From an uncultured Planctomycetaceae bacterium (GTDB taxonomy: Bacteria > Planctomycetota > Planctomycetia > Planctomycetales > Planctomycetaceae): a stretch of 43,774 bases of DNA. A program made the position numbers and the translations under genes. The DNA lies in the NCBI GenBank assembly GCA_964575135.1, contig CAZNQX010000002.1:1091-44864 (forward strand). The letters run 5' to 3'. The notes under the pieces are model-generated. The model did no database searches and had not been told where the DNA came from. It saw only the letters and a program-made list of their open reading frames with translations. Shown piece by piece: positions 7,867 through 43,774 of this stretch (position 1 is the first letter of the stretch; each line of letters opens with the position of its first letter).

Positions 7867-10824
7867 TTGCCAAGATCCGTGTCTACCAATTCCCCCCGCT
7901 ACGTTGTCGGCATCGACCTGGGTACGACGAACTCCGCCGTCGCCTTCGCCGACACGGAAGACGATCGCCTGGCCGTTCATATTTTTTCCGTACCGCAGGT
8001 GGTTGCCGCCGGGCAGGTCGAGCGGCGGGAGACGCTGCCGAGCTTTCATTACCAGCCGGCCGCAGGCGAGTTCCCGCCCGAGTCACTGGCGTTGCCATGG
8101 AACAGAAAGGCCGACCACGTCGTCGGTGCATTCGCGCGCGATCAGGGACTGAAGGTTCCCGGCCGGGTGATCATCAGCGCCAAGAGTTGGTTGTGCCATC
8201 CGGGCGTCGATCGGACGGCCGATCTGCTGCCCTGGCACGGAGCCACCGACGTCGATCGGCTCAGCCCGGTTGAGGCGAGTGCCCGGTATCTCGCTCACGT
8301 CCGGTCGGCGTGGAATGCGGCACATCCCGATCATCCGCTCGAACGTCAGGACGTCGTCCTGACGCTGCCGGCATCATTCGACGAGGTCGCCCGCGAACTG
8401 ACGGTGCGGGCGGCACAGAAGGCCGGCCTGCCGCGCGTCGTGTTGATCGAAGAACCGCAGGCGGCGTTCTACGCCTGGATCAACAAGCACCGCGACGACT
8501 GGCAATCGCACGTCGACGCCGGACAGACAATCCTGATCTGCGACATCGGCGGCGGAACGAGCGATTTCACGCTGATTCGTGCCCGCCCGGCAGAAGGCGG
8601 CAGCGTCGCCTTCCATCGCATTGCCGTCGGCGAGCACCTGATCCTCGGCGGCGATAACCTCGATCTCGCGATCGCGAAGCAGCTTGAGGCGAAACTCGCC
8701 GGCAACGACCGGCTCGAACCGCGACTTTGGGAATCGCTGGTCCGACAAAGCCGAGTCGTCAAGGAAACGCTGCTTGCCGAAGACGCCCCCGAGAATCTGA
8801 CGGTGAGTCTCGCCGGCCGCGGCGCGGGACTGATCGGCGGAGCCATGCAGGTCACGGCCGATCGCGAGGCGTTGCGGGGCATGCTTCTTGACGGATTTCT
8901 TCCGAACGTGCCGCTCGATGCAAAGCCTCAAGCGATGCAGTCTGGCTTTCAAGAGTTCGGGCTGCCGTTCGCAGCCGATCCGGCGATCACCCGGCATCTG
9001 GCATGGTTCCTGACGTCGCACTGGGAAATTCTGGCCGATGAAGTGGCAAAAGCGTCGGCGACGCCGTCGTCCGACGGTGCTCCACAACCTGCGTTCGCCG
9101 ACAGCCGCGGTCTGCCGGTCGCAGCATTGAAACCCGATGCCGTCCTGTTCAACGGCGGATTTTTCGTCTCACCCCTGCTGCGAGAACGGCTGCTGTCGGT
9201 GCTGGGCGGATGGTTCGCAGAAGGGGCGGGAGTAGAAGGGGCGGCGAACGGAACACGAGAGACGAGCGGTGGAAACGACTCGTCGCCCATGCTGTACCGC
9301 CCCACGATCCTCGACAACGACGCCCTGTACCTCGCCGTCGCGCGGGGAGCCGCCTACTACGGTCTCGTCCGCCGCGGTCACGGCGTCCGGATCGCCGCCG
9401 GGCTGGCGCGAACGTACTACGTGGGAGTCGAGGTCGAAGGTCTGGTCTCCGATGGCGACACAGAGACTCGACGGCCAGGCGACCCGCCACCCGACACCTC
9501 GTCCCTCGCCGTCTGCCTCGTCCCGGCGGGCACCGAGGCTGGTGAGACCATCGAGTTGGAACAGCCGACGTTTCACCTGCGGGTCGCAGAGCCGGTCGAG
9601 TTGCCGATTTTCACCTCGGCGGTTCGCCTGACCGACAAACCGGGGACCAGGATTCCCGTTGACCGCGAGCAACTCACGGCGCTCCCACCGATCCGGACGG
9701 TGCTCCGAAGCCGCAAGGGCGAAGAAGGTGTCGTCCCGGTGTGCCTGCGGGCGGGCCTGACGGAGATTGGCACGCTCGACCTCAGTTGCCGCGAACTCGA
9801 GGGGAACCGTTCGTGGAAGCTGCAGTTCGACGTCCGAAGTGCGACTCAGACCGACGTGGCGGCTCACGAATCGGCTGCCGAGGCCGAAGGCGTTCTCGAT
9901 GAAGAGGTCTGGGCAGAATGCGAGGCAATCCTTAAGAGCGTCTGGGGGACGGAATCGCAGGCGTCTCCCCGCGACGTGATGAAACGACTGGCCGAAGCGA
10001 TCGGCAGCCCCCGCAACGATTGGCCGACGTCGCTGCTGCGGCGGATGTGGGAATTGCTGCTCGAGCTCGAATCGGGGCGTCGGAAAAGCCCGTCCCACGA
10101 AGCCCGCTGGCTGAATCTCGCCGGCTTTGCACTTCGTCCCGGTTACGGCTACGCCCTCGACGACTGGCGTGTCGGCGAAACGTGGAAAACGCTGCGCAAC
10201 CGTCTCGTGCATCCCAAGCCCGATTGTCTTTCGCAGTGGCGGATCTTCTGGCGGCGGATTGCCGGCGGCCTGGAAGCCGGTCAGCAGCAGACTCTCGCCG
10301 ACCCGGTATTGTCGGAGTTGCGGACCACGAAACCGCAAAGCCGGAGCCAGGGAGCCGGCGTCGAAGAAACATTCCGACTGCTGGCGTCGCTCGAGCGTCT
10401 GAACGTCAGCCGGAAAATCGAAATCGGCCGCATCGCCGCCGCCTGGTTCACCAATGACAAGGCGGCGAGTCTGCATCCGATTGCGGCGTGGAGTCTCGGC
10501 CGGATCGGCGCACGCGTTCCGCTTTACGGACCGCTCAATTCCGTCGTCCCACCGGAAGAAACCCGCCCGTGGCTCGACGCATTGCTGGCCTCCGACCTGC
10601 CCGCGCAGACCCTGGCGTTTCCCATTGCCCAGATGGCCCGCAAGACGGGCGACCGCTTCCGCGACCTGCCGGACGGCGCCCGCGGTCGTGTTGTCGGGTG
10701 GCTGGAACGCCACGAGGCCGCTCTCCATCTCATCCGGCTGGTTCGCGAAGGCGGACAACTCGAAGCCGAGGAACAATCGGCCGCGTTCGGCGAGAGCTTG
10801 CCGAAGGGGCTGCGGTTGCGGTGA
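7867..10824 (+). CDS. Giant Hsp70-family protein: DnaK-type nucleotide-binding domain plus a ~450-aa non-canonical C-terminal region
   Basis: ORF 7867..10824. The track start is TTG, and a GTG at 7879 is equally possible. It contains YVVGIDLGTTNSAVAF, EEPQAAFYAW, LICDIGGGTSDFTLI and NGGFFVSP. The C-terminal ~330 aa is helical (WLNLAGFALRPGYGY...) and does not resemble the canonical DnaK lid. Confidence 0.9.
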   Translation: MPRSVSTNSPRYVVGIDLGTTNSAVAFADTEDDRLAVHIFSVPQVVAAGQVERRETLPSFHYQPAAGEFPPESLALPWNRKADHVVGAFARDQGLKVPGRVIISAKSWLCHPGVDRTADLLPWHGATDVDRLSPVEASARYLAHVRSAWNAAHPDHPLERQDVVLTLPASFDEVARELTVRAAQKAGLPRVVLIEEPQAAFYAWINKHRDDWQSHVDAGQTILICDIGGGTSDFTLIRARPAEGGSVAFHRIAVGEHLILGGDNLDLAIAKQLEAKLAGNDRLEPRLWESLVRQSRVVKETLLAEDAPENLTVSLAGRGAGLIGGAMQVTADREALRGMLLDGFLPNVPLDAKPQAMQSGFQEFGLPFAADPAITRHLAWFLTSHWEILADEVAKASATPSSDGAPQPAFADSRGLPVAALKPDAVLFNGGFFVSPLLRERLLSVLGGWFAEGAGVEGAANGTRETSGGNDSSPMLYRPTILDNDALYLAVARGAAYYGLVRRGHGVRIAAGLARTYYVGVEVEGLVSDGDTETRRPGDPPPDTSSLAVCLVPAGTEAGETIELEQPTFHLRVAEPVELPIFTSAVRLTDKPGTRIPVDREQLTALPPIRTVLRSRKGEEGVVPVCLRAGLTEIGTLDLSCRELEGNRSWKLQFDVRSATQTDVAAHESAAEAEGVLDEEVWAECEAILKSVWGTESQASPRDVMKRLAEAIGSPRNDWPTSLLRRMWELLLELESGRRKSPSHEARWLNLAGFALRPGYGYALDDWRVGETWKTLRNRLVHPKPDCLSQWRIFWRRIAGGLEAGQQQTLADPVLSELRTTKPQSRSQGAGVEETFRLLASLERLNVSRKIEIGRIAAAWFTNDKAASLHPIAAWSLGRIGARVPLYGPLNSVVPPEETRPWLDALLASDLPAQTLAFPIAQMARKTGDRFRDLPDGARGRVVGWLERHEAALHLIRLVREGGQLEAEEQSAAFGESLPKGLRLR

Positions 10825-29971: not shown

Positions 29972-32926
29972 TCAGAACCGCAGTTCGAGCGTGGCGACTT
30001 CGTAGGCGCCCAGATCGACCGAAACGGTCCCGGCTTCGACGAGCAGATCACCGGCAGTCTCGCCGGCGAGCGTCACGAGTCGGGCCGATGTGGGCGATTT
30101 GAAGCAGGCGAGGCGTGCTCGCCTGGCGCGGCCCTCGGTTTCCAGCAGACGAACCTGCAAGCCGCCGGGACCGCCGTCATCAGGCGGCAACGGACGGACG
30201 GAAGTCACCTGCACGTTCCTGGCGTCCACCTGGAAAAACCAGCCTGTTCGCCCGGCAGGCGGTGGCCCGCCCGATGTTTCGACGACGATCGGCGGAACGT
30301 AGGCGTCAAGTGCCGGACGCATCGGATACGGATCGTCGCAGGCGATGACGAAGCGGAACGATCGCGTCGATTCGCCATCGACGATTAACAGGGTATCGAG
30401 CATGCGTTCGCCGGTTCGTCGATGAAACGGAAGTTCGAGTGGCACGATCGTCGTTCGCAGATCCCCCTCGGCGATTTCCAGATAATGCGGCGCATCGAAT
30501 CGGCCGTCGGGTGTCGGCTGCGCCGTTTGTTGAACGCTGCGGGTCAGTACGGCATCCGGGTCGTTCCAGGCGAACCGGCAGGCGTAATAGTTCGTCCACG
30601 GATCCCCCTCGGGCAGGCGCTGCGGATCGAGAACGACGTCCAGTTCGACCACTGGCCGTTCCCGCCAGACGCGAATCGTCTGCCGGAACGTTGCCATGAC
30701 ATCCCCGGAGATCTGATCGATCAGTTCACCGGCCGTGACGGCTTTGGCAAGGGCCGGGCCGTCGCAGGTCAGTTCGACTGACCGGGCACGCATGATTCCG
30801 TAATAGGTGCTTTCAATGTTGCCGTCACCGGATTCGATCTGCCGCTTCCGGGGGAAGCGGTAAGCCAACTGCTGGCTCAGTCGCTTCGGGCTGCGCCCGT
30901 GCCCTTTCAGAAAAGCGATCCCGCCGGTCGTTTCGCTGAGTCGCAGTTCGAAGAACTCGTTACGAAGAGTCAATTCTTCGGCAGTGATCGAACGGTCGCG
31001 TGGTGCGTCCGTGCTGGAATCGCCCGGTAACCACGCAAACCCCGACCCCGGTAATTCGACGACCACGTTGTGCCGCGAGCTGTCGAACTGGATTTGCTTG
31101 ACCGGCCCCTCGAGAACCGGCGGCGAAAATCCTTCGGGGAGTTGGACAACGACCCGACGGGAAAAGGACAAAGGATTGACGATCAGCACCCCCCGGTCGT
31201 GTGGGGAGCCTTGGGCAATCATGGAGGCGAGTGAACCGGCGGCCGCGCTCGTTGCTTCGACCAATTGCCGATCGACCTCCAGGGCCGTTTCCATCTCGGC
31301 ATCGGGTCCGGCCTCTTCGCTGTCATCTTCACGGCGGGCGACCGTGGATGCGTCGTACTCGCTTTGCAGCACGCCCACGATCGACTGCAACCAGTTGACC
31401 GCGTCGAGTTGATGGCGGCGGGTGACGGCGTGACCGAATCGGCCGATCGGATCGGGAAGGCGGCGGGCCACGGCCTGCGTCAGATATGGCGCAAAATAAT
31501 CGGAGGCGCGATGGCGATGCGTCCGCCCCGGTAACTCGCTGTCCTCGAAAAACGTTTCCAGCCCGACGATCCGGCCGAACACCGGCGCATAACGGTGAAT
31601 GCGCCGCAGGTCATCGAGCCACGGCGACGAGACCTCCGGCCACCGGGCAAACATCGCGGCTGCCGTTTGATCCTGCTCCATCGACTCCGCGAGGCGCTGT
31701 GACAGCCGCAGAAAACTGGTGGCACTGTCGGCAGCGAGCGGAATGCGGCTGAAAGCATCGACGCTCACTCCGTCGCAGCCTTCCCAGCGAAAGCGGCTCA
31801 GTTCGTCGTCCGGGTAGTATCCGTCGTCCAGCGCAGCATGAACGGCGTACGGCATCTGTGAGCGTTCGAGCAACTGCGGCAGCAGTGTTGAAAACCCGTA
31901 GCGCCGTCGCGCCCATATCGTCGGTGGGCGACCAAACAATCGCTGGAAGACCGCTCGTCCCCGGTTCAATTCCCACAGGACCGATTCAACGGGAAGCAGC
32001 GATGTCGGCCCTTCACGCATTTCCCCACCGACAAGGCAGAGGTGCTGCTTGTGCCAGTCGGCCGCGAGTCGTTCGACGAGTTCGGGATGTTCGGTGGCGA
32101 TCTGGTCCCAATCGGAGGCCGTGGCCAGCAGGGTCGTTGGTGCGAGCGAAGAGAGTGTTTCCGGGAGCTTGTCTGCCAGTTGCGGCACGACGAGACAGAG
32201 ATCGATCAGATAACTATCAACCGGGAAATAGCGTTCCCGGGCGTCCAGAAGCAGTTCAAAAGCCCGGCTCAGCCGTCGGCGGGCCTGTTCGCAATCGCCC
32301 GCAACCGCCGCCTCGGCGGCTGCGACAACGTCAAGACGCACCGGGCTGCTGTCGAGATTGCTGTAGTAGTGCATCCGCCGGGTCAGCAACTCGAGCTGCA
32401 ACATCGCGGTGCCGAACGCCAGGAAGTCAGCCGCAAGTTCCGCGTCGATCTCCTGACGAGTGCGATCGGCCTGCCGACTGTCTGCGCCGTCGCTGTCCTC
32501 GGCCGGTTCGGCCTTCTGTTCGGTATCCGGCGGGGTAGACGATTCAGCCGTTTCGTTCTGTGCGGTTTCGATCGTTAAAAGCGCTGAGAGAAGTTGCGAG
32601 ACCAGTTCGTCGCGCTCTTCGATGTTTTCAAGGACGACCGCCCCGGAGGCGGTTGCCTCCTCCGACCAGTGGTGCGGCAGCCAGGACGCACAGCAGGCAG
32701 GCACGATGATGATTTTGCCGGTCAGACCGACTGCATCGTCTGTGACGGCGGGAGGTTCGTCGGCCCGCTTCCAGTTCGGCAGTTCACGGGCGGCAGCCAG
32801 CAGAACCGGGTGGTATGCTGCAGAGAAGGCGTTCAGCAGACCTGACGCCTCTGACTCGCCGAGATCGGTCGGGAAATCTTCGAGGCTGTGACAGGGGATG
32901 AGGATCGTGATTTCAGGGCGAATCAT
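29972..32926 (-). CDS. Large GH38 (alpha-mannosidase)-like protein with substituted catalytic motifs
   Basis: ORF 29972..32977. I prefer the ATG at 32926 (MIRPEITILIP). The central block HPELVERL...LVGGEMREGP..LLPVESVLWELNRGRAVFQRLFGRPPTIWARRRYGFSTLLPQLLERSQMPY....FRWEGCDGVSVDAF aligns with the GH38 N-domain consensus as I remember it. The C-terminus is a beta-rich region ending ...VDLGAYEVATLELRF. Confidence 0.75.
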   Translation of the reverse strand: MIRPEITILIPCHSLEDFPTDLGESEASGLLNAFSAAYHPVLLAAARELPNWKRADEPPAVTDDAVGLTGKIIIVPACCASWLPHHWSEEATASGAVVLENIEERDELVSQLLSALLTIETAQNETAESSTPPDTEQKAEPAEDSDGADSRQADRTRQEIDAELAADFLAFGTAMLQLELLTRRMHYYSNLDSSPVRLDVVAAAEAAVAGDCEQARRRLSRAFELLLDARERYFPVDSYLIDLCLVVPQLADKLPETLSSLAPTTLLATASDWDQIATEHPELVERLAADWHKQHLCLVGGEMREGPTSLLPVESVLWELNRGRAVFQRLFGRPPTIWARRRYGFSTLLPQLLERSQMPYAVHAALDDGYYPDDELSRFRWEGCDGVSVDAFSRIPLAADSATSFLRLSQRLAESMEQDQTAAAMFARWPEVSSPWLDDLRRIHRYAPVFGRIVGLETFFEDSELPGRTHRHRASDYFAPYLTQAVARRLPDPIGRFGHAVTRRHQLDAVNWLQSIVGVLQSEYDASTVARREDDSEEAGPDAEMETALEVDRQLVEATSAAAGSLASMIAQGSPHDRGVLIVNPLSFSRRVVVQLPEGFSPPVLEGPVKQIQFDSSRHNVVVELPGSGFAWLPGDSSTDAPRDRSITAEELTLRNEFFELRLSETTGGIAFLKGHGRSPKRLSQQLAYRFPRKRQIESGDGNIESTYYGIMRARSVELTCDGPALAKAVTAGELIDQISGDVMATFRQTIRVWRERPVVELDVVLDPQRLPEGDPWTNYYACRFAWNDPDAVLTRSVQQTAQPTPDGRFDAPHYLEIAEGDLRTTIVPLELPFHRRTGERMLDTLLIVDGESTRSFRFVIACDDPYPMRPALDAYVPPIVVETSGGPPPAGRTGWFFQVDARNVQVTSVRPLPPDDGGPGGLQVRLLETEGRARRARLACFKSPTSARLVTLAGETAGDLLVEAGTVSVDLGAYEVATLELRF

Positions 32927-33100
32927 CGGCCTTTCGCGGAGACGGCGGGACCACGAAACCCGGGGCGGACCTTTCATACCCCGGCGGGCTGCGTCATGAT
33001 ATCGGAGTAGCCGGGAACTTTCCCGCCGGTGGCGTCGTCAAAGGGGTGGCGAACGGGTGACCGTCGCCCGGACCCGAGGCGGTTCGATCCGGTTTTTTGG

Positions 33101-33130
33101 TTGACTTTTTGCGAATCACGGTGATAGCGT
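33101..33130 (+). promoter_or_regulatory. Candidate sigma70-type promoter for the pilM-like operon
   Basis: TTGACT (33101-33106), 18-nt spacer, then TG-a-TAGCGT (extended -10-like, hexamer 33125-33130). A T6 run lies upstream and could act as an UP-like element. Pattern match only; planctomycete promoter rules are poorly known. Confidence 0.2.
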
Positions 33131-33245
33131 TCAATACGTCCGATCGGGTTGTCCGCGCGGTTTCGCGGGGACCGATGCCGGTTTCGGGCAGTTTCCTTTC
33201 CTGATTCCAATCGAATCGTCTGCAATCTGGCACAGGTGTCCGCCT

Positions 33246-33273
33246 TGACGCGTTGGAGGATGACGCGTTGGAG
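33246..33273. promoter_or_regulatory. Exact 13-bp direct repeat with 15-bp period in the divergent control region
   Basis: tgacgcgttggag (33246-33258), ga, tgacgcgttggag (33261-33273). Each copy contains the ACGCGT palindrome. The repeat lies ~125 nt upstream of the pilM-like start. Confidence 0.5.
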
Positions 33274-33399
33274 ATCGACCGGTCAGAACACGGGCGCCGG
33301 ATTCACCGGCGACCACAGGCATTCACAATTGACTATCGTTAGCAACCGCAGAACCGTTTCGGGCGCCCGCTTGCGGCGCACCGGCCGGGAGTGACGACT

Positions 33400-35946
33400 A
33401 TGCCCGAGGAACGCGGCTACTGGGGAATCGAGATCGGTCAGGCCGGCCTCAAGGCGCTGCGGTTGCAGCCGGTCGAAGGGGCCGGCAAAGCCGTCGCCAC
33501 CAACTTCGATTATGTTCCGCACGCCAAGATCCTCAGCCAGCCGGACGCCGTCCCGGAGGAACTGGTGGCCTCGGCGATCGACACGTTCCTGTCGCGGAAC
33601 GATCTACGGGGCGATTCGATTTCGATCAGCGTGCCGGGACAAAGTGCGCTGGCCCGCTTCATTCAGTTGCCGCCCGTCGAGCAGAGCAAGGTCCACCAGA
33701 TCGTGCTCTACGAGGCCAAGCAACAGATCCCGTTTCCGCTCGAAGACGTGATCTGGGATTACCAGACACTCGGCGGCGGCTCCGAGGAAAGTGGCTATCT
33801 GCTTGAAGCCGAGGTCGGTCTGTTCGCGATGAAACGCGACCTCGTCATGCAGCAGTTGCAGCCCTTCGCCGACCGCAAAGTCGAAGTCGACGTCATTCAG
33901 GTCGCTCCGCTGTGTCTGTTCAACTTCCTGTGCTACGACCGGCTCAAGATCCGGCCCGAGGAACCGTTCACCCCCAATGACGACCATATCGTCATCTGCG
34001 AAATGGGAACGGATAACACGATCCTCGTCGTCACCAACGGCGCGAAGATCTGGATTCGCAACGTGCCGATCGGCGGAAATCATTTCACGCGGGCACTGGT
34101 GAAGGACATGAAATTGACCTTCGCCAAGGCCGAGCACCTCAAGTGCAACGCCACGAAAAGCCCCGATCCCAAGGCGGTCTTCCAGGCGATGCGGCCGGTC
34201 TTCAACGACTACGTCGCCGAGATCCAGCGTTCGGTCGGTTACTTCGCCAGCGTGAATCGCAGTGCGAAAATCACGAAAGTGCTCGGCGTCGGCAACGGCT
34301 TCAAACTCGCCGGGCTTCAGAAATTCCTCCAGCAGAACCTGCAATACCCGGTCGAGCGCGTCGAACGGTTTGAAAGCCTGGTCGGCGAGAAGGTGCTCTC
34401 CGATGCGGTGTTCCACGAGAACATCCTCGGTTTCGTCGTGCCCTACGGCCTGGCGGTGCAGGCGATGGGCCAGACGACGACGAAAACGACGCTCCTGCCG
34501 CCGGAGATCGCAACCGCTCGCAAGATTCGCGGCAAGAAGCCGTGGGCGGTACTCACCGCCGCCGGGCTGCTGGGCATGTTCGCACTGAGCGCTTTCGGCT
34601 ACGGGAACGTCGGGCGGAGCGTCAGCGAAGCCAGGTTCGGCGACGCCGAACAGGCCGTCGAATCCTGGAACGGCACGGCGTCGACCTTCCAGTCGCGCTA
34701 TAGCGGCGTCAAAAGCGAAATTGCCGAGATTCAAAACAGGGCCAACGGCCTGATCGGCGACGTGAGTACGCGGAGCCTCTGGCTCGAATTGATGCGGGCG
34801 GTCAACGAGTGCCTGCCTCGCGACACCGCCGAAACGATCGATGCCGAAGACCCCACCAAGCATCGGCGCATTCGGATCACGTCGCTGACCACCCGGAAAG
34901 TGCCCGATCCCGCGATCTGGTTCAACACGCTTTCGCCAAGCGCGAAGGGCTACCTCGCTCCCTACGACCAGACCGCACCCGCCGCGACCCCCGAGACGGC
35001 CGCGGCCGCTTCCGACGGAGCCGGCACACCCGCCCCGCCGGAATGGTATGTCGTCACACTCGTCGGCAACCACATCCACCACAGCGGCGAGCAGTACACA
35101 CAGCGCGGCATCGGCTTCGTCGCCGATACACTGCTCAGAAACCTCCAGCAGTGGAACGTGCAGCAAGACGGCTCGATCGGCGCGATTCCCGTCGGGAAAA
35201 TGGGGATCAGTCATGCGACGGTGATCCAGAACGACACCGTTCCGGTTCTTGATCCTCGCAACTTCACCGAACTCGACCTGGACGATTCCAATCCGTTCGG
35301 GCAGCGGTTTGGCAGCGGCGGTCGAGGGGGAGCGGGGGCCGGCTACGCTCCTGGCGAAATGATGGAAGATTACGCCCCGCCGGAAATGGCCCCCGGTCCG
35401 GGAGGTGGTCATGGTGGTCCGATGGGCAACGGCGGCTCCTTTGGTGCCCGGAGGCCACAGATCGACCGCCGGACTCTGGAAAACCTGGAAAACCTGACCC
35501 GCCAGAGCCAGGACGGCGAATTGCCGTACCCCGAGATTGAACTCACAACGTTTACGGTCCAGTTCCTCTGGAATCCGATCCGGCCGGAACAACGCACCGA
35601 GACCCGACCGGTTGCCAGTGCCGAGGGCGAGACGCCGGATGACTCGATGACCGCGCCGCAAGACCCCACCGCGGCAGACCCGGCGGCCACGCCGGCACCG
35701 GGAATGCCGGCACCAGGATCACCACCGATGACGAACGATACGCCGGCTCCCGGGGCGCAAATGGCTGAGCCGGCCCCCGGCGCCCCGGCCGAATCGACTC
35801 CCCAGTCGCCGATGCCGACGCCTCCTGAGGGAGGATCTGCAGCACCGGCGGCCCCCGGACAACCACCGTCCGACGCACCAGCACCGAATGCGGCAGCACC
35901 CGGTGCGCCGGATCCGGCGGCGGGCGGACCACCAGCCGCTCCTTGA
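33400..35946 (+). CDS. pilM: PilM-PilN fusion: actin-like PilM ATPase-fold domain, PilN-type linker and TM helix, then a large extracytoplasmic region with Gly- and Pro-rich tracts
   Basis: ORF 33391..35946 (GTG in the track). I prefer the ATG at 33400. The PilM-like part contains YWGIEIGQAGLKAL, VICEMGTDNTILVV, NVPIGGNHFT and GVGNGFKLAGL. It is followed by TLLPPE (34489-34506, compare INLLP of PilN) and the TM helix WAVLTAAGLLGMFALSAFGY. The C-terminal ~130 aa is Pro/Ala-rich. Confidence 0.85.
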   Translation: MPEERGYWGIEIGQAGLKALRLQPVEGAGKAVATNFDYVPHAKILSQPDAVPEELVASAIDTFLSRNDLRGDSISISVPGQSALARFIQLPPVEQSKVHQIVLYEAKQQIPFPLEDVIWDYQTLGGGSEESGYLLEAEVGLFAMKRDLVMQQLQPFADRKVEVDVIQVAPLCLFNFLCYDRLKIRPEEPFTPNDDHIVICEMGTDNTILVVTNGAKIWIRNVPIGGNHFTRALVKDMKLTFAKAEHLKCNATKSPDPKAVFQAMRPVFNDYVAEIQRSVGYFASVNRSAKITKVLGVGNGFKLAGLQKFLQQNLQYPVERVERFESLVGEKVLSDAVFHENILGFVVPYGLAVQAMGQTTTKTTLLPPEIATARKIRGKKPWAVLTAAGLLGMFALSAFGYGNVGRSVSEARFGDAEQAVESWNGTASTFQSRYSGVKSEIAEIQNRANGLIGDVSTRSLWLELMRAVNECLPRDTAETIDAEDPTKHRRIRITSLTTRKVPDPAIWFNTLSPSAKGYLAPYDQTAPAATPETAAAASDGAGTPAPPEWYVVTLVGNHIHHSGEQYTQRGIGFVADTLLRNLQQWNVQQDGSIGAIPVGKMGISHATVIQNDTVPVLDPRNFTELDLDDSNPFGQRFGSGGRGGAGAGYAPGEMMEDYAPPEMAPGPGGGHGGPMGNGGSFGARRPQIDRRTLENLENLTRQSQDGELPYPEIELTTFTVQFLWNPIRPEQRTETRPVASAEGETPDDSMTAPQDPTAADPAATPAPGMPAPGSPPMTNDTPAPGAQMAEPAPGAPAESTPQSPMPTPPEGGSAAPAAPGQPPSDAPAPNAAAPGAPDPAAGGPPAAP

Positions 35947-36021
35947 GACCCTCAGTCGAACGAAATCGCTGCCTGAGACACGCGAAACAACCGACCAATC
36001 CTGCATGCAGGAAGTGCTGCG

Positions 36022-38058
36022 ATGGATAAGCTCAAACCGCTGCTGACCCATAAGTTCTGGATCCTGTCGTTCGTTGCCCTGATCGTGGTGACGGTTGGCT
36101 GGTATCTGGGCACCGGTGCGCAGGCGGCGGCGATTCAGGCCCGCATCGACAAGCTCAACGGCTTGTCACCCACGGCCGGGGGGACGACGCCGAACGACGA
36201 CTGGATCGAGAAGGCCACGGCCGTGAAGGACCAGAACGCGGTCAAGGTTCAGGATGCGGCCGCCTACCTCTGGGAGCACCAGAAGGGCAACATGGTCTGG
36301 CCTCGGCAGATGCGGGAATACGTTCAGGACAAGACGTTCGACTCGGAGCTGGAAAATCAGGCCAAAGAGACCTATCGGCGTCATTTTGCAGCGGAGGTCG
36401 AGCGCCTGGGAGAGGTGGTCGATCCATACGACAGGAACGATCGCAGTATGCGCTGGGAAGGCGCGGTTGTGCTGCAACGGGAAACATTGCCGCTCGTTGA
36501 CCCGTCGATCTGGCAGGGAACGCCGCCGTCGAGCAAAGAGATCTGGTATCTCCAGGAAGACGTCTGGTTGCTGGAAGCCCTGCTGCAATCGGTCCGCGAC
36601 GTCAACGACCGGGCCGGGGCCGACTCGAACATCATCAAGGCGCCGATCAAGCAGATCTCGCTGATCGAACTGCGTGGCGGCGATCGGGCCGCTCTGGCTG
36701 CCGCGGGTGCTGCCGGCGGCATGGCGGCAGGCGGAATGGGCAGTGAAATGGACGCCGAAGGCTACGCCCCGCCCGGCGGTGGTATGTTCAGCGAGATGCA
36801 CGCCGGCGGCGGAGGCGGCTTTGGAATGGGTTCCGGGATGGGCGGCGGAATGGGCGGCGTCGCGGCCGGGACGGATTTCAACATGGACGAAGAGGTCGGA
36901 CCGGCGACGCTTGCGGCTGTCGGTGCAATGGGTTCGATGGAGGGGGAAGCAGCCGACCCGTATGCCGTGCCGGGCGAGGCTGGCGGCGGTGGCTATATCC
37001 CCCCCGCGGACATGGGCGGCGGGATGGGGAGCGCAAACCGGAATCCCCTGCTCGATCAGAAACGCTATGTCGACGACGGCCCGGAACTGCCGTACAAAAC
37101 GCGCGCCTTCAAGCTGTCAGTCGTCATGGACCACCGGCAGATCCCTGAGTTCCTCGTTGAACTCACAAACTCTCCCTTCCCCGTCAATATCGAACGTGCT
37201 CATTGGGCCGAGATGAACCCGGATCCGCGATACGCAGGTCGGGGTCGCGGTTACGGCGGGGGCATGGAGGGGACCGACGGTTACGCGCCTCCCGGTTTTG
37301 GCGGATCGCGCGGGTCGAGGCCTGGTTCCCGCGGCGGCTTTGGCTCACCCATGGGCCTCGGTCACTCTGCGCCGGGACTGAGCAACCCGATGAGCCACGG
37401 TGGTTTCGGCAGCAGCCCGATGGGCAGCGGCCGCCGCAATCCAATGGGCAGCGGGTTCGGCCGCTCGCCGATGGGGGGTGGCATGTTGCCTGGAATGGAC
37501 GGCATGGACGAATACGACGGTATGGGGGGATTTGGCGGCATGGGGAGACAGCGCGGAAACGACCCCTACAGTCAGGCGATGTCCGATCCTTTCCTGGCCG
37601 AGGTCGTCGTCGGCGGCGTCATGACGCTCTACCGATCGCCCCAGGACGTGCAGGCATCGGTGGACGAGGCCGAAGCCGGCACAGGCACCGCGACGGCTCC
37701 CACAGACGCGACGGCTCCCGACGCGGCAGCCTCCGGAATGACGCCGATGAACGGGCCCGGACCAATGGGTACGCCGTCACCGGTGGATCCGGACTCGCCT
37801 CCAGTCACTCCGTCGGCTGCCGAGTCGCTCACTCCTCCGGCAGACGAGACGTTGCCGGAGGATGGCTCCGGACTGCCGGAGGAAGCGGCAGCAGATTCGG
37901 ATGCTTCGGCAACTCCCAATCCGTCGGCACCACCGCCAGCGAACGGCGTTACGGCGCCACCGCCAGCGAACGACGTTACGGCGCCTCCGGCCGAGAGCGG
38001 TGGAGTGGATCCTGAGTCGCCACCGCCTGCGGATGCCGGCAGTGGCCCACCGCTGTAA
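36022..38058 (+). CDS. Hypothetical 678-aa single-pass membrane protein with Gly/Met-rich tracts and a Pro/Ala/Asp-rich tail
   Basis: ORF 36022..38058. It has an N-terminal anchor FWILSFVALIVVTVGWYLGTG preceded by Lys residues. Ordered-looking segments (WYLQEDVWLLEALLQSV, RAFKLSVVMDHRQIPEFLVELTNSPFPVNIE, FLAEVVVGGVMTLY) are separated by long G/M/F/Y low-complexity stretches. Confidence 0.8.
   Translation: MDKLKPLLTHKFWILSFVALIVVTVGWYLGTGAQAAAIQARIDKLNGLSPTAGGTTPNDDWIEKATAVKDQNAVKVQDAAAYLWEHQKGNMVWPRQMREYVQDKTFDSELENQAKETYRRHFAAEVERLGEVVDPYDRNDRSMRWEGAVVLQRETLPLVDPSIWQGTPPSSKEIWYLQEDVWLLEALLQSVRDVNDRAGADSNIIKAPIKQISLIELRGGDRAALAAAGAAGGMAAGGMGSEMDAEGYAPPGGGMFSEMHAGGGGGFGMGSGMGGGMGGVAAGTDFNMDEEVGPATLAAVGAMGSMEGEAADPYAVPGEAGGGGYIPPADMGGGMGSANRNPLLDQKRYVDDGPELPYKTRAFKLSVVMDHRQIPEFLVELTNSPFPVNIERAHWAEMNPDPRYAGRGRGYGGGMEGTDGYAPPGFGGSRGSRPGSRGGFGSPMGLGHSAPGLSNPMSHGGFGSSPMGSGRRNPMGSGFGRSPMGGGMLPGMDGMDEYDGMGGFGGMGRQRGNDPYSQAMSDPFLAEVVVGGVMTLYRSPQDVQASVDEAEAGTGTATAPTDATAPDAAASGMTPMNGPGPMGTPSPVDPDSPPVTPSAAESLTPPADETLPEDGSGLPEEAAADSDASATPNPSAPPPANGVTAPPPANDVTAPPAESGGVDPESPPPADAGSGPPL
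37931..37984. repeat. 27-bp in-frame tandem duplication (1 mismatch) in the tail of the 678-aa protein
   Basis: caccgccagcgaacggcgttacggcgc followed by caccgccagcgaacgacgttacggcgc. This encodes PPPANGVTA / PPPANDVTA. Confidence 0.9.
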
Positions 38059-38180
38059 GCTGAGAAATGGTACGATGAGAACACGACCTTCGAGACGAAA
38101 TTGCTGAACATCGATCGACCCTCGATCACCAATCCACAATCCCAGTCAATTCGGAACCCGTTCCGACCCGGGAGCCGGCC

Positions 38181-40481
38181 ATGAAACTTTCTCCTTCCGG
38201 CATGAAAAACATGAACTGGAAGCAGTTTTTCGTCGATCACGGCGAGAAACTCTTCTTGGGCGTCGTGGCTCTGCTCGGCTTGGTGGCTCTCGGGTTGACC
38301 CGGTGGGCTCCTTATTCCGAGAAGTCGCCATACGAACTGCAGCAGGCGGTGGCGCAGGCTGAAGTCGACCATCAGAACAGCACCTGGCCCGAAGCCGAGC
38401 GCGAGGAGTTGACGTCCAGCGATGATATCTACGCGAAAGCGCAGCAGTTGCTGTCACCGCTGGAAGACTCGCGTTACGTCTTCAGTCGGACGTTGCGGGA
38501 GATCTTCCCCCCGATCGTGCCGCAGAAGCAGCCGCTTGAAGAGCCGCGCTGGTATCCCGTGCAGCGGTTGATCGCCGACGCGAGTACGGTGCTTTACGCA
38601 AAAGCCCCCTCGATGGATGCCCTGCTGGCGGCGGCCGAGGCCGAGGAGGCGGCAGCAGAGGAAGAATCGCAGTCGGGCACCCAGAGCACCGGCCCCGGCC
38701 CGAGAGGGATCGACACCGGGGCGTTCACACCGTCCGCGGCGCGACGTTCTCAGGGATTGCCTGGATTCGGACCGGGGGAAGGAATGGCGGAAGGTTACGT
38801 CCCACCGGGGGGGGGCGAGGAAGCGACCGCCGCCGGGCGCGGAAGAGGCTCGGCTCGCGGTAGCCGCCGGGGGAGTGCACGAGGTGGTTCCGGCGGTCCG
38901 GCTGGTGGCCACGGCGGAGGCGGATCGGGTGCGATGCCGGGGGCAGACTTCTACGGCGGTGAATACGCCGGCGAGTACGGCAGCGGAATGATGGGTGGCT
39001 ACGGGATGGCTGGCCCGATCGAGGCCGAAGCAAAACGGTTTGTCTCGGTCCGCGGCGTCTTCCCGATCAAAGATCAGGAAACGGCTCTCGCGCGGGCGTT
39101 GGGTGCCCAGTCCGCTGCCCAAGTCGTCAATGCGCTGCAGTTCGAGGACTTCGAACTGCAACGTCAGACCGCCGTGCAGGGGAGGAACCCCTGGTCGGGC
39201 CCTTGGGAGGCGGTGGACCATCAGATCGCAATCGACGTGCTCAGCGAACAGGCGAACTTTTCCGCCGACATCGTGGATCAGTCGGTCACCAACGCCGTTT
39301 TCACTATGCCGCTGCCCAACCGGCTCATGGGCGAATGGCAGGAAAGCACCGCCAGCCATCCTGCGCTGACGCAGTTCGAATTGACCGAGGACGCCAGGAA
39401 GCAACAACTCTGGCTCCAGACGAAGATCGCCGAGTATGCCGAGTTGATGAAAGAGCAGGAGGCGGCCCGGCCGCAACCGGGTGGTTTCGCCGCGCTGACC
39501 TACGACACGCGGCAGATTGGCAGCATGATGGCGATGGACTCGGGCTACATGACCGATATGGCCTCTGAGTACTCCGAATACAGCGGGGGGGGAGGATTCG
39601 GTATGTCCCGGCCAACGGCCCGCGGAGCGCGGCGTCAAACCGGCCTCGACAAAATTAAGCCGGAAGACATCAAGAACATGCTCACCGCGAGCGGTACGTA
39701 TTTGCTGTTCCGATATCTCGACTTCGACGTCGAACCGGGGAATGCCTACCGGTATCGAGTCCGCCTGAAAGTTCAGAATCCGAACTTCGGTCGCGATCCG
39801 GGCGAGGCGACCGCTCACAGCGTCGTCGAGGGCGCCAGTCGGATGACTCCCTGGAGTGAACCAACGCCCGTGGCGATCGTTCCGGACGATACCCGGCACT
39901 TCCTGGTCGAGATCGAGCGGCCCGTCTCGAATCAGGCCGATCGGGCCTTGTTCGAGTTGTTCCAGTGGTCTCGCGAATTCGGAACCTACGTTCGTGAATT
40001 TCTCGCGGTCGAGCGGGGGCAGTTTGTGGGAGGAACGACGGAGACCCCGGTGATCGATCCGGCGGGCGGCACCTTCGAGGAACAAAAATTCACGTTCACC
40101 TCGAACGAGGCGCTGGTCGACATCAATCGCAACGGCATGTTCGTCGCGGGACGGACGGAACTGGGGGTCTCCGACCGGAGGTTCCAGATTCCGGCACAAG
40201 TGCTGACCGTCAACGATTGGGGCGGTCTGGAAGTTCAGGATCCGGTCAGTACCCGAGGAAATCGCGTGGCTTGGGAGAACTGGATGGCCGGCGTTGCCAG
40301 CAGCTTCGATTATCTGAAACAACAAACGGTCGCGACCGGTGAAGCTGGCATGGAATACATGGAAGAGGGAATGTACGACGCTGAGATGACCCGCGGCTCC
40401 CGCGGCTCGGGACCGGCCAGCCCGCTTCGCCGGGGCCGTGGACGCGGCGCCGCTGGATCGTTTTCCGGCAGTATGCCCTGA
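38181..40481 (+). CDS. Hypothetical 766-aa single-pass membrane protein with RG/GY/GM-rich tracts and a beta-rich C-terminal domain
   Basis: ORF 38181..40481; alternative ATGs at 38202 and 38211. It has the anchor LFLGVVALLGLVALGL and low-complexity tracts (RGRGSARGSRRGSARGG, YGGEYAGEYGSGMMGGYGMAG). Ordered-looking parts include FVSVRGVFPIKDQE and TYLLFRYLDFDVEPGNAYRYRVRLKVQNPNF. Confidence 0.8.
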   Translation: MKLSPSGMKNMNWKQFFVDHGEKLFLGVVALLGLVALGLTRWAPYSEKSPYELQQAVAQAEVDHQNSTWPEAEREELTSSDDIYAKAQQLLSPLEDSRYVFSRTLREIFPPIVPQKQPLEEPRWYPVQRLIADASTVLYAKAPSMDALLAAAEAEEAAAEEESQSGTQSTGPGPRGIDTGAFTPSAARRSQGLPGFGPGEGMAEGYVPPGGGEEATAAGRGRGSARGSRRGSARGGSGGPAGGHGGGGSGAMPGADFYGGEYAGEYGSGMMGGYGMAGPIEAEAKRFVSVRGVFPIKDQETALARALGAQSAAQVVNALQFEDFELQRQTAVQGRNPWSGPWEAVDHQIAIDVLSEQANFSADIVDQSVTNAVFTMPLPNRLMGEWQESTASHPALTQFELTEDARKQQLWLQTKIAEYAELMKEQEAARPQPGGFAALTYDTRQIGSMMAMDSGYMTDMASEYSEYSGGGGFGMSRPTARGARRQTGLDKIKPEDIKNMLTASGTYLLFRYLDFDVEPGNAYRYRVRLKVQNPNFGRDPGEATAHSVVEGASRMTPWSEPTPVAIVPDDTRHFLVEIERPVSNQADRALFELFQWSREFGTYVREFLAVERGQFVGGTTETPVIDPAGGTFEEQKFTFTSNEALVDINRNGMFVAGRTELGVSDRRFQIPAQVLTVNDWGGLEVQDPVSTRGNRVAWENWMAGVASSFDYLKQQTVATGEAGMEYMEEGMYDAEMTRGSRGSGPASPLRRGRGRGAAGSFSGSMP

Positions 40482-40541
40482 TGATCAATGTGCCCTGAAT
40501 TGCAGCAATCAGCGGGGCGACGGCTCGGTGACATTGGAATC

Positions 40542-40577
40542 GAGGGTCGCGAAAGCCACACCGCTTTCGCGACCCTC
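40542..40577. terminator. Perfect 15-bp-stem hairpin between convergent genes (candidate bidirectional terminator)
   Basis: gagggtcgcgaaagc / cacacc / gctttcgcgaccctc. It lies 60 nt after the stop of the 766-aa gene and 5 nt after the folC stop on the other strand. Confidence 0.65.
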
Positions 40578-40582
40578 GTTGC

Positions 40583-42633: not shown

Positions 42634-43774
42634 TCAACGCTGACCGGCGGCCAGATACCGGGCCAGACCTTTACTGCGGTTGCGCGACGGCACGGTGTCG
42701 GATGCGACATCGGCTCCGACGGCTGCAACCGCCGGATCAACCGGCTCGTCGATTTTCCGCGCCAGTCCTTCGATGGCCGTTGTAAGTCGTGACTTCGACG
42801 ACTGAGTCACGAGCGGCACGCCCTGATTGCGGCTTTCGACCATCGCGGCAAACTCATCGGGCAACTCCCAGAAGATCTCCTGGCCAATCGACTCTCGGGC
42901 CGCATCAAGCGTCATCCCGGTGCCTGGAAGGCCGACGCGGTTGGCAACGACCCTGACCTTCTCCCGGAGACCGTCGTGGCGATCGAGCAGTTCCAGCAAT
43001 CGGACGACGTTCCGCAGGCAGGGCCGATCGAGCTGCGTCACCATCAGAATCGTGTCGGAGGTTTTCAGGATCGCGAGATCGAGTGGGCCGAAGTTCCTGC
43101 CGACGTCGATCACTTGGTGGGTGAAGGTCGTTTTGAGCAGGACAACGACACGTGCGATCTGGTCGGGCGTCAACGCTGCGTCCGGTCCGATTTGTCCCGT
43201 CCCGGGGAGCAGGAAGACACCGCAGGCATGACGGGTCAGGCTCCGTTTCAGAAAGGTGGAATCGAAGCGTCCGACCTTCCCGGCAATGTCCCGGATCGTG
43301 GTGTCGGGCACCAGATCGAGCCAGATGTCGGCATCGCCGAGCGTCAGATCCAGATCGAGGACCGCGACGCTGCTGCGATCCGCCCGTGCCAGAACGCAAC
43401 CTAGATTGGTCGCCAGACTCGTGCAGCCAACGCCCCCGCCTGCCCCACAAACCGTGATGACGCGGCTCGACCTGAGTCTGCCGGCCGCATCTTTTCCGGC
43501 AGTCCGGGCCTGGATTCGATCGAGAGTGGCCAGAACGTTTTCGAGAGTCGGCGCATCGGCCAGAAACTCCCGGGCGCCGTTCCGCATCGCCTGCAAAATC
43601 AGACTGCCGTCCTGGCGACTGCTGATGCAGAGAATCGCGCAGGTCGGTGCGTCCCGGCTGATTTGGGACACCAGCTTCAGTGCCTTCGCCGGCTCGGCGT
43701 CGAGTGCGACAACCGCGACGTCGGGACACGTTTGGCTAATAATGTCGCCGAAGAATTCGTAACGGCTGCAATCC
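42634..43774 (-). CDS. TadZ/CpaE-like pilus-assembly protein (receiver-like domain plus MinD/ParA-fold domain), 5' end outside the window
   Basis: ORF 42634..43671 in the track (GTG). The frame stays open to the window edge, reading DCSRYEFFGDIISQTCPDVAVVALDAEPAKALKLVSQISRD. The ParA-fold part contains VITVCGAGGGVGCTSLATNLG, LDLDL and VVANRV. Confidence 0.8.
   Translation of the reverse strand, partial: DCSRYEFFGDIISQTCPDVAVVALDAEPAKALKLVSQISRDAPTCAILCISSRQDGSLILQAMRNGAREFLADAPTLENVLATLDRIQARTAGKDAAGRLRSSRVITVCGAGGGVGCTSLATNLGCVLARADRSSVAVLDLDLTLGDADIWLDLVPDTTIRDIAGKVGRFDSTFLKRSLTRHACGVFLLPGTGQIGPDAALTPDQIARVVVLLKTTFTHQVIDVGRNFGPLDLAILKTSDTILMVTQLDRPCLRNVVRLLELLDRHDGLREKVRVVANRVGLPGTGMTLDAARESIGQEIFWELPDEFAAMVESRNQGVPLVTQSSKSRLTTAIEGLARKIDEPVDPAVAAVGADVASDTVPSRNRSKGLARYLAAGQR

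Follow-up and report, generated by a model that had tools for sequence, protein, structure and literature searches.

What kind of machine is encoded by three consecutive genes that open with an actin-like PilM protein and continue with two large membrane proteins resembling no known family? The question is raised by a locus at positions 33400-40481 of a 43,774-nucleotide (nt) stretch of DNA from an uncultured Planctomycetaceae bacterium (assembly GCA_964575135.1, contig CAZNQX010000002.1, positions 1,091 to 44,864), the whole of which we call the window. An earlier note on this DNA had described the three genes as an operon for a candidate non-canonical envelope-spanning machine, made up of a PilM-PilN fusion and two giant, unclassifiable single-pass proteins. 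Our analyses agree with the envelope-spanning type of machine and give it a more precise identity: the trio is probably the inner-membrane/periplasmic alignment subcomplex of a Planctomycetota type IV pilus (T4P)-like machine, whose secretin would be encoded elsewhere in the genomes of this family.

A three-gene operon

The locus has the following layout.

32978-33399, no strand: divergent intergenic region between a GH38-like gene (minus strand) and gene 1, presumed to hold the promoter.
33400-35946 (alternative start 33391), plus strand: gene 1, 848 amino acids (aa) from the ATG at 33400, predicted natural PilM-PilN fusion.
36022-38058, plus strand: gene 2, 678 aa, single-pass protein with cytoplasmic N-terminus (N-in), in the position of PilO or Amuc_1100 and with a predicted PilO-type topology.
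38181-40481, plus strand: gene 3, 766 aa, single-pass protein, N-in, in the PilP/GspC position.
40541-40578, no strand: perfect 16-bp hairpin between gene 3 and a convergent folC-like gene, probably a bidirectional terminator.

The three open reading frames are co-directional, with gaps of 75 nt between genes 1 and 2 and 122 nt between genes 2 and 3, exactly as first reported, and all three are backed as genuine genes by gene calling based on GC content at third codon positions. The ATG at 33400 is favoured as the start of gene 1 because a GGGAG sequence lies 8 nt upstream of it. The promoter is presumably located in the divergent region, where a scan for sigma-70-like promoters recovered no site, as expected for this phylum. 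No terminator-like site was found on the plus strand inside the trio region, and the hairpin that closes it has two perfectly paired 16-nt arms (40541-40556 and 40563-40578) around a 6-nt loop, a slightly longer structure than the 15-bp stem at 40542-40577 seen before. Its folding free energy is -33.6 kcal/mol (z = -6.3; 0 of 200 shuffled sequences folded equally well) and, because it lacks a U-tract, its probable function as a bidirectional terminator is one that we infer. The trio thus behaves as the single operon that had been supposed.

Hydropathy detects one strongly hydrophobic segment per protein, at aa 381-401 in gene 1, aa 6-33 in gene 2 and aa 21-44 in gene 3. In all three cases it is preceded by basic residues (Lys in genes 2 and 3), implying a cytoplasmic N-terminus and a periplasmic location for the bulk of each protein.

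Gene 1, a natural fusion of PilM and PilN

To judge from its sequence, gene 1 is a natural fusion of PilM and PilN in one polypeptide, with these parts.

33400-34470, plus strand: aa 1-357, cytoplasmic actin-like PilM domain (column identity ~0.5-0.97, mostly >0.75).
34486-34506, plus strand: aa 363-369, TTLLPPE, equivalent of the PilM-binding motif (INLLP) at the N-terminus of PilN.
34540-34602, plus strand: aa 381-401, single transmembrane (TM) helix by hydropathy, preceded by RKIRGKKPW.
34603-35619, plus strand: aa 402-740, periplasmic region of conserved blocks with low-conservation insertions at aa 521-547 and 621-700.
35620-35943, plus strand: aa 741-848, Pro/Ala-rich tail, unconserved (gap fraction 0.7-0.9).

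The PilM domain is identified by Pfam PF11104 (9.8e-28, aa 9-354, 338 of 340 model positions), by TIGR01175, the PilM model, whose cut-off of 133 bits is passed with 147.5 bits, and by a PDB sequence search that retrieved Myxococcus PilM (3jc8) at 2.7e-35. Just behind it, TLLPPE at aa 364-369 had been read as the PilN signature, correctly according to profile alignment: a profile of 45 orthologs aligns '...LKLTEI-KTTLLP' with '...FDSSGMARINLLP' of 5eou, an engineered Pseudomonas aeruginosa PilM-PilN(1-12) chimera, placing KTTLLP opposite RINLLP. The PilN peptide occupies the same place after the PilM C-terminus in both, but the natural fusion goes on into a TM helix and a periplasmic region of ~450 residues. 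Residues T363, L365, L366, P367 and E369 are invariant in the 45 orthologs, as are K379, K380, P381 and W382, so that the pattern TxLLPxE...R...KKPW is kept throughout. Taken together with the passed PilM cut-off, this alignment bears out the fusion proposed in the earlier note.

The segment after the PilM domain (aa 355-476) on its own matches positions 350-465 of NF045709, the NCBIfam model 'Amuc_1101 family PilM-like pilus complex protein', with E = 2.9e-6, and the fused architecture therefore seems to be common to Amuc_1101 of Akkermansia. At 197.3 bits over model positions 52-465 of 608, the full-length gene 1 falls well short of the cut-off of 650, which by profile score makes it a relative of the Amuc_1101 family and not an equivalog. 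Models of FtsA, which shares the actin-like fold, perform far worse: TIGR01174 fails with 17.9 bits (cut-off 175.85) and PF14450 stays below its cut-off of 31.8 with 28.6 bits (E 2e-6).

The periplasmic region of gene 1 has no Pfam match. A crude estimate of secondary structure from sequence periodicity, which agreed at 70% with DSSP when calibrated on gene 2, puts beta segments to each side of both insertions, compatible with the alpha-beta-[insertion]-beta-alpha-beta-[insertion]-beta arrangement of a PilN-like core, and is suggestive at most. Identity in the PilM domain is mostly 0.75-0.97, versus 0.2-0.5 in the periplasmic parts of all three proteins, a contrast suggesting that a partner or activity in the cytoplasm is under strong constraint.

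The fusion is widespread in the phylum and the trio is conserved

An exhaustive search of 1.84 billion representative proteins at E <= 1e-30 retrieved 1,076 representative clusters matching gene 1. Among the best 150 of them, which are mostly 600-1000 aa long, 130 carry [TS]NLLPxE just past the PilM domain, and in these distant representatives a TM helix usually comes next. The members with a name belong to Gimesia, Gemmataceae, Thermoguttaceae and Phycisphaerae and bear the annotation 'type IV pilus assembly protein PilM'. The PilM-PilN fusion thus appears to be a phylum-wide trait that is already annotated as PilM, and not something special to this locus. Closer to the window, 61 complete gene 1 orthologs all measure 700-800 aa, except two truncated calls.

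The partner proteins are also widespread, with at least 153 database clusters for the gene 2 family and at least 393 for that of gene 3; their named relatives are all called 'hypothetical' and no cluster has a Pfam domain. In our survey of representative genomes we collected 80 loci with a gene 3 relative, all from Planctomycetaceae/Planctomycetales (including Gimesia, Planctomicrobium, Schlesneria, Maioricimonas and Planctomyces), and the order gene 1-gene 2-gene 3 was kept in every locus with sufficient upstream DNA (~65 of 80).

Distant orthologous operons continue into a secretin

The most informative context came from a distant subfamily of the fused protein, represented by 80 metagenome loci with a single named member, from a Phycisphaerae metagenome-assembled genome (MAG). 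Thirty-two of these loci have at least 7.5 kb of DNA downstream, where we found a gene 2-like gene in 24, a gene 3-like gene in 25 and a secretin of 929-1476 aa on the same strand in 21. Five of the fourth-gene proteins were scanned with Pfam, and each has a Secretin domain at its C-terminus (PF00263, 6e-23 to 4.6e-29), accompanied in two of them by weak STN/TPR matches; a hidden Markov model (HMM) built from these five recognised the other 16. Comparison with hhalign of the distant partners and the window genes gave probabilities of 99.3% for gene 2 (E = 1.3e-20) and 99.8% for gene 3 (E = 4.2e-29), values at which the distant partner genes are, by profile, true homologs of genes 2 and 3.

Since orthologs of the trio are followed by a secretin, the ancestral unit would have been fused pilM/N-gene 2-gene 3-secretin, that is, the classical order pilM-N-O-P-Q. 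The label 'non-canonical' was in this respect an overstatement, the trio corresponding to the M/N-O-P part of a pilMNOPQ-type locus. The earlier note had also considered that the trio might simply belong to a standard T4P locus split across the genome. The type of locus is indeed T4P-like; the locus itself is not a standard one. In Planctomycetaceae the partner secretin is likely unlinked from the operon, and it would be present elsewhere in the genome studied here. That pilin or ATPase genes are lacking in the vicinity is usual where pilMNOPQ stands alone as an operon, as in P. aeruginosa.

The Phycisphaerae-type operons also contain, in 12 loci, a conserved fifth gene after the secretin, encoding a protein of 435-467 aa with a signal-peptide-like N-terminus and no Pfam match (for example L085:12789-14147, L094:18857-20164 and L103:18727-20130). 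A pilotin, or some other protein associated with the secretin, is a possible identity, and the gene is absent from the window and from the Planctomycetaceae loci within +/-10 kb.

Gene 2 and the PilO-type fold

By sequence, genes 2 and 3 resist assignment, as had been claimed, even when profiles are used and the insertions are removed. Neither full-length protein matched Pfam or NCBIfam at E <= 1, nor did constructs of both from which the insertions had been deleted. PDB profile searches with the full proteins, the trimmed gene 2 core and the shorter distant orthologs gave chance-level matches only, and a bulk Pfam scan of 32 gene 2-like and 38 gene 3-like distant orthologs yielded nothing but scattered single chance matches.

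Structure prediction was more informative for gene 2, whose AlphaFold model (aa 1-545, from a 120-sequence alignment) can be divided as follows.

36037-36120, plus strand: aa 6-33, TM anchor (hydropathy, AlphaFold model), running on as a helix to aa 47.
36532-36675, plus strand: aa 171-218, alpha1-beta1 of a ferredoxin-like core (predicted local distance difference test, pLDDT, >90; DSSP).
36682-37041, plus strand: aa 221-340, disordered insertion 1 in the beta1-beta2 loop (G 31%, A 20%, M 11%).
37093-37212, plus strand: aa 358-397, beta2-alpha2-beta3 (DSSP of the model).
37222-37581, plus strand: aa 401-520, Gly/Ser/Pro/Met-rich disordered insertion 2 in the beta3-beta4 loop.
37594-37632, plus strand: aa 525-537, beta4, closing the core (DSSP of the model).
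37657-38055, plus strand: aa 546-678, Pro/Thr/Ala-rich C-terminal tail.

The ordered parts are modelled with pLDDT >90. Behind the anchor helix come a helical region (aa 59-131) and a core in which DSSP assigns alpha1 to aa 171-196, beta1 to 209-218, beta2 to 358-370, alpha2 to 371-382, beta3 to 388-397 and beta4 to 525-537. This (alpha-beta-beta)x2 ferredoxin-like topology is the one known from PilO, PilN, GspM and the periplasmic domain of GspL. Residues R361 and F363 of the core are invariant in both alignments, and L381, P387 and R392 also in the deeper one (A5). According to the model, gene 2 has a PilO-type (alpha-beta-beta)x2 topology with insertions in its two hairpin loops, so that calling it 'unclassifiable' went too far.

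A Foldseek search against the PDB points in the same direction, with 10 of the 14 gene 2 matches being PilO (3jc8_O, 2rjz, 5uvr), Amuc_1100 (6lad, 6kny) or PulM (5hl8), every one of them weak when taken alone (E 0.66-10, spanning ~42-45 columns). The alignments are short and weak because the insertions break them, and the concentration on this group of proteins is unlikely to be due to chance, given how few of the 350,542 chains in the library are of this kind.

The long disordered insertions noticed from the letters alone are real by several measures: in the models the Gly/Met-rich segments have pLDDT <50, and across orthologs they show a high gap fraction and low conservation. Their positions are conserved while their sequences are not. 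Together with the Pro-rich tails they account for ~55% of gene 2 and, in genes 1 and 3, for between a fifth and a quarter. Within insertion 1 of gene 2, only a short conserved FD..EEFG patch around aa 285-295 rises above pLDDT 50. The interruption that the earlier note gave as its example, PVNIERAHWAEMNP ... DPFLAEVVVGGVMTLY, falls at the junction between beta3 and beta4 of the gene 2 model.

A pentapeptide, GY[AVI]PP, occurs five times in the Gly/Met-rich insertions, at aa 658 of gene 1, aa 248, 325 and 421 of gene 2 and aa 206 of gene 3. We rejected it as a conserved shared linear motif, as it is confined to the lineage of the window and its closest relative (L002); a common mutational bias or parallel expansion in recent times may explain the recurrence better than a conserved function would.

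Gene 3, the third protein of the trio

The third protein was modelled from a 116-sequence alignment (pLDDT 77, predicted template modelling score 0.72), with these main regions.

38241-38312, plus strand: aa 21-44, TM anchor; the protein has no Cys and is therefore not a lipoprotein.
38601-39020, plus strand: aa 141-280, Gly-rich disordered insertion (pLDDT 31-56), gap-rich and poorly conserved.
39021-39590, plus strand: aa 281-470, conserved alpha/beta and helical middle region (pLDDT >90).
39687-40250, plus strand: aa 503-690, conserved beta-sandwich region, fibronectin type III (FN3)/Ig-like.

In the model the TM anchor is followed by N-terminal helices, and a strand at aa 128-141 pairs with the middle region across the 140-aa insert. 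The most conserved motif of the family, LLFRYxDFDVxPGxAYRYRVRLxxxNP, lies in the beta-sandwich region, and Foldseek returned weak matches to tandem FN3/Ig domains (E 0.04-1). Gene 3 likely takes the PilP/GspC role, an assignment by analogy that is based on its position in the operon and its general architecture and not on a fold match.

Gene 3 has two orphan paralogs, unaccompanied by genes 1 and 2, at L065:9998-12031 and L068:1508-3592, as second loci in MAGs that also carry the trio (L005, L045). One lies near a Ser/Thr kinase-WD40 protein and a glycosyltransferase and the other near a DNA polymerase III alpha gene; these contexts being unrelated, we dropped the paralogs as a clue to function.

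A putative alignment subcomplex

We propose that the PilM domain of gene 1 would lie beneath the inner membrane and receive the docked PilN motif that is tethered to it, and that the periplasmic part of gene 1 would pair with the PilO-like core of gene 2, by analogy with the PilN/PilO and GspL/GspM pairs. Gene 2, in the role of PilO, would consist of an N-in anchor, a helical stalk and the ferredoxin-like core, and gene 3, anchored in the same membrane, would reach the outer-membrane secretin via its C-terminal beta-sandwiches. The trio would thereby line up the inner-membrane pilus motor or platform with the outer-membrane pore, as the corresponding proteins do in type IVa pili (T4aP) and in the type II secretion system (T2SS). 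The Gly/Met-rich insertions and Pro-rich tails might act as flexible spacers, or as a meshwork, in the large and variable periplasm of planctomycetes, which has been seen by cryo-electron tomography (cryo-ET; PMC5394234). What the data show is which domains gene 1 contains, the topology of gene 2, the order in which the genes are kept and the secretin beside the distant orthologs; the protein-protein contacts, the partner secretin in this genome, the production of a filament and the role of the disordered segments are conjectures by analogy.

Several results weigh against this proposal. In all profile searches genes 2 and 3 lacked sequence similarity to PilO, PilN, PilP, GspM, GspC and Amuc_1100/1099; hhalign comparisons among the periplasmic parts of genes 1, 2 and 3, looking for paralogy of the PilN/PilO type, gave nothing (probability <= 0.1%); and a PDB sequence search with the trimmed periplasmic profile of gene 1 stayed at chance level. 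To the individual weakness of the structural matches of gene 2 is added the case of gene 3, whose top 50 Foldseek matches include no PilP or GspC chain, and which is TM-anchored without a lipobox Cys and about four times the size of PilP. Concerning the genomic context, neither the window nor any Planctomycetaceae locus has a giant secretin within +/-10 kb of the trio, and a scan for Walker motifs of the PilB/PilT or GspE type near 161 loci detected no ATPase.

A scan for prepilin signal peptides around the same 161 loci found sporadic prepilin-like genes and was uninformative. Planctomycetes carry many prepilin-like proteins.

Comparison with known systems

Among characterised machines, the PilMNOP-Q system of T4aP, as known from Myxococcus xanthus (3jc8) and P. 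aeruginosa, shares with the trio a homologous PilM, the PilN motif with its TM helix, the PilO-type topology predicted for gene 2 (TM helix, helices and (alpha-beta-beta)x2 core), and the order M/N-O-P-(Q), with an adjoining secretin in the distant orthologs. It differs in that the trio has PilM and PilN as one polypeptide and partner proteins that are 3-5 times larger, with Gly/Met-rich insertions of 80-140 aa inside the folds and Pro-rich tails. Genes 2 and 3 show no detectable sequence similarity to PilO and PilP. Unlike gene 3, with its TM anchor and FN3-like domains, PilP is a lipoprotein whose C-terminal beta-sandwich (HR) domain binds the N0 domain of the secretin. The secretin, for its part, is unlinked in Planctomycetaceae and, where linked, reaches a giant size of up to 1476 aa, some examples having TPR/STN.

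Closer in phylogenetic terms, within the Planctomycetes-Verrucomicrobia-Chlamydiae (PVC) superphylum, Akkermansia muciniphila has a cluster that runs from the secretin-type Amuc_1098 to Amuc_1102 and includes Amuc_1099 and Amuc_1100, both hypothetical proteins, as well as Amuc_1101, historically annotated as FtsA (PMC5332112). The kinds of components are the same, including the hypothetical proteins and the secretin-type one, the PilM-like protein likewise extends through a TM segment, and Amuc_1100 (6kny/6lad) is among the structural matches of gene 2. The window, in contrast, has no adjoining secretin, gene 1 is under the cut-off of NF045709, and genes 2 and 3 match no NCBIfam model. Amuc_1100, with ~317 aa, also lacks the giant insertions of gene 2.

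The third system to consider is the T2SS, and here the comparison amounts to an alternative explanation, namely that the trio belongs to a device for secretion or uptake that resembles the T2SS and has a short pseudopilus in the periplasm instead of a surface pilus, and in which genes 1, 2 and 3 would resemble GspL, GspM and GspC. The architecture in fact fits the T2SS more literally than T4aP, because GspL joins an actin-like domain via one TM helix to a ferredoxin-like domain in the periplasm, its partner GspM spans the membrane once and resembles PilO (PulM, 5hl8, is among the gene 2 matches), and the third protein is TM-anchored like GspC. GspC contacts the secretin via a beta-sandwich domain. 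An uptake function would agree with the description of macromolecule uptake in planctomycetes via fibres at crateriform structures (PMC5394234). However, the cytoplasmic domain of gene 1 is PilM by sequence, as its TIGR01175 score indicates, and not GspL; no T2SS family, T2SS-L included, appeared in the Pfam/NCBIfam scans of the three proteins; the gene order is pilM-N-O-P-Q and not that of gsp loci; and no GspE, GspF or pseudopilin genes adjoin the operon. We therefore consider a T2SS-like device unlikely.

The neighbourhood and the Tad/Cpa locus

The earlier note had seen no secretin, pilin, PilB/T/C or prepilin peptidase gene flanking the operon. This is true within the window, with one caveat at its right edge: the last gene (42634-43671, minus strand) encodes a CpaE/TadZ-like ParA/MinD ATPase (Pfam CbiA/AAA_31), the remainder of the window being occupied by unrelated housekeeping and metabolic genes. 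The N-terminal ~65 aa of this ATPase, outside the Pfam matches, look receiver-like by eye. In related loci (L001, L002, L004, L009, L016, L018, L058 and L080) the cpaE-like gene precedes a CpaC/RcpA-type secretin on the same strand, in most cases RcpC too, and in L001 also a prepilin peptidase (PF01478); a Tad/Cpa pilus locus thus probably starts where the window ends.

This proximity is the basis of a further explanation, in which the trio would be an accessory inner-membrane scaffold for the secretin of the neighbouring Tad/Cpa system, of CpaC/RcpA type, and not for a PilQ-type one. In Gimesia and the closest relatives of the window, a cluster of cpaE, cpaC-type secretin, rcpC and prepilin peptidase genes lies 2-6 kb downstream of the trio. 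In another Planctomycetaceae clade the trio is followed by murD on the same strand and then by a short CpaC-like secretin of 348-405 aa (L028:13859-14935, L074:13610-14827, L075:7219-8265), which has no domain but Secretin behind a coiled-coil-like N-terminus and shares ~44% identity with the Cpa-type secretin of Gimesia, so that a Cpa-type secretin occurs near the trio in two different arrangements. Apart from these Cpa-type ones, no secretin was found directly downstream of the trio, within 10 kb, in Planctomycetaceae. Yet the linkage concerns only ~13 of the 80 Planctomycetaceae loci, the downstream genes being unrelated in Schlesneria, Planctomicrobium and Maioricimonas, and the Cpa cluster is on the opposite strand, behind two housekeeping genes. 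The trio itself matches no component of Tad/Cpa (type IVc) systems (CpaA-F / TadB, C, Z), we know of no Tad system that uses PilM, PilN, PilO or PilP, and the secretin adjoining the distant orthologous operons is a giant one with STN/TPR and not of the Cpa type. A scaffold devoted to the Tad/Cpa secretin is, on this evidence, quite improbable.

Finally, the suggestion that the actin-like domain might work like FtsA, in a scaffold for division or peptidoglycan synthesis in planctomycetes lacking FtsZ, is very improbable: it can appeal to the fold common to PilM and FtsA with its sub-threshold PF14450 match, to the unusual conservation of the cytoplasmic domain, to the frequency of Mur-ligase family neighbours (folC-like in ~30 loci, murD in ~6) and to the old annotation of Amuc_1101, but the FtsA model TIGR01174 fails where the PilM one passes, the PilN docking motif is present, a secretin, which plays no part in division, follows in the orthologous operons, the folC and murD neighbours vary in strand and position, and the operon is kept both in Planctomycetaceae, which bud, and in Phycisphaerae, which divide by binary fission.

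Upstream, a divergent GH38-like gene is the neighbour of the trio in ~45 Planctomycetaceae loci, and the genes downstream differ by genus. In the window this gene (29972-32977, minus strand, 1001 aa) has only a weak match to the GH38 N-terminal domain (E = 6e-6). The five Phycisphaerae-type loci that we checked have a divergent gene of 474-565 aa at the corresponding place, and the two scanned encode radical-SAM/UPF0004 (MiaB-like) proteins. Unrelated to the trio, the window also encodes, at 7867-10824 on the plus strand, an HSP70-like protein of 985 aa that has a DUF3731 'DnaK-related' domain at its C-terminus.

Implications for the planctomycete envelope

The alignment subcomplex proposed here gives a likely role to two large families of 'hypothetical' proteins for which no Pfam model exists. 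The recorded PilM annotation already covers the fusion and the related Akkermansia family has been named; the assignment of genes 2 and 3 appears to be absent from databases. If correct, it would mean that a T4P alignment complex tolerates both the fusion of PilM with PilN and disordered insertions of 100 residues inside a PilO-type fold.

A more speculative extension concerns the large crateriform structures of planctomycetes, press-stud-like links joining the outer and inner membranes, ~100 per cell, from which 12-nm pili-like fibres that bind macromolecules emerge, and to which the 2017 cryo-ET study gave no molecular identity (PMC5394234). The fused PilM/N, gene 2, gene 3 and a giant secretin encoded elsewhere might form the core of these structures, an idea that we regard as doubtful and that is prompted by the phylum-wide conservation of a T4P-like scaffold, its unusual size and the published morphology. 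In such a case the oversized periplasmic proteins with their disordered insertions may be adaptations for building a wide, flexible, envelope-spanning crater in cells whose periplasm is greatly enlarged, and the small polar crateriform structures might be the counterpart of the adjacent Cpa/Tad system.

Orthologs likely exist in the tractable species Planctopirus limnophila and would make the hypothesis directly testable. The envelope of Planctomycetes is molecularly little understood, as are its enlarged periplasm, its crateriform structures and its uptake of macromolecules, and the trio names candidate genes for envelope-spanning, fibre-producing complexes in these bacteria.

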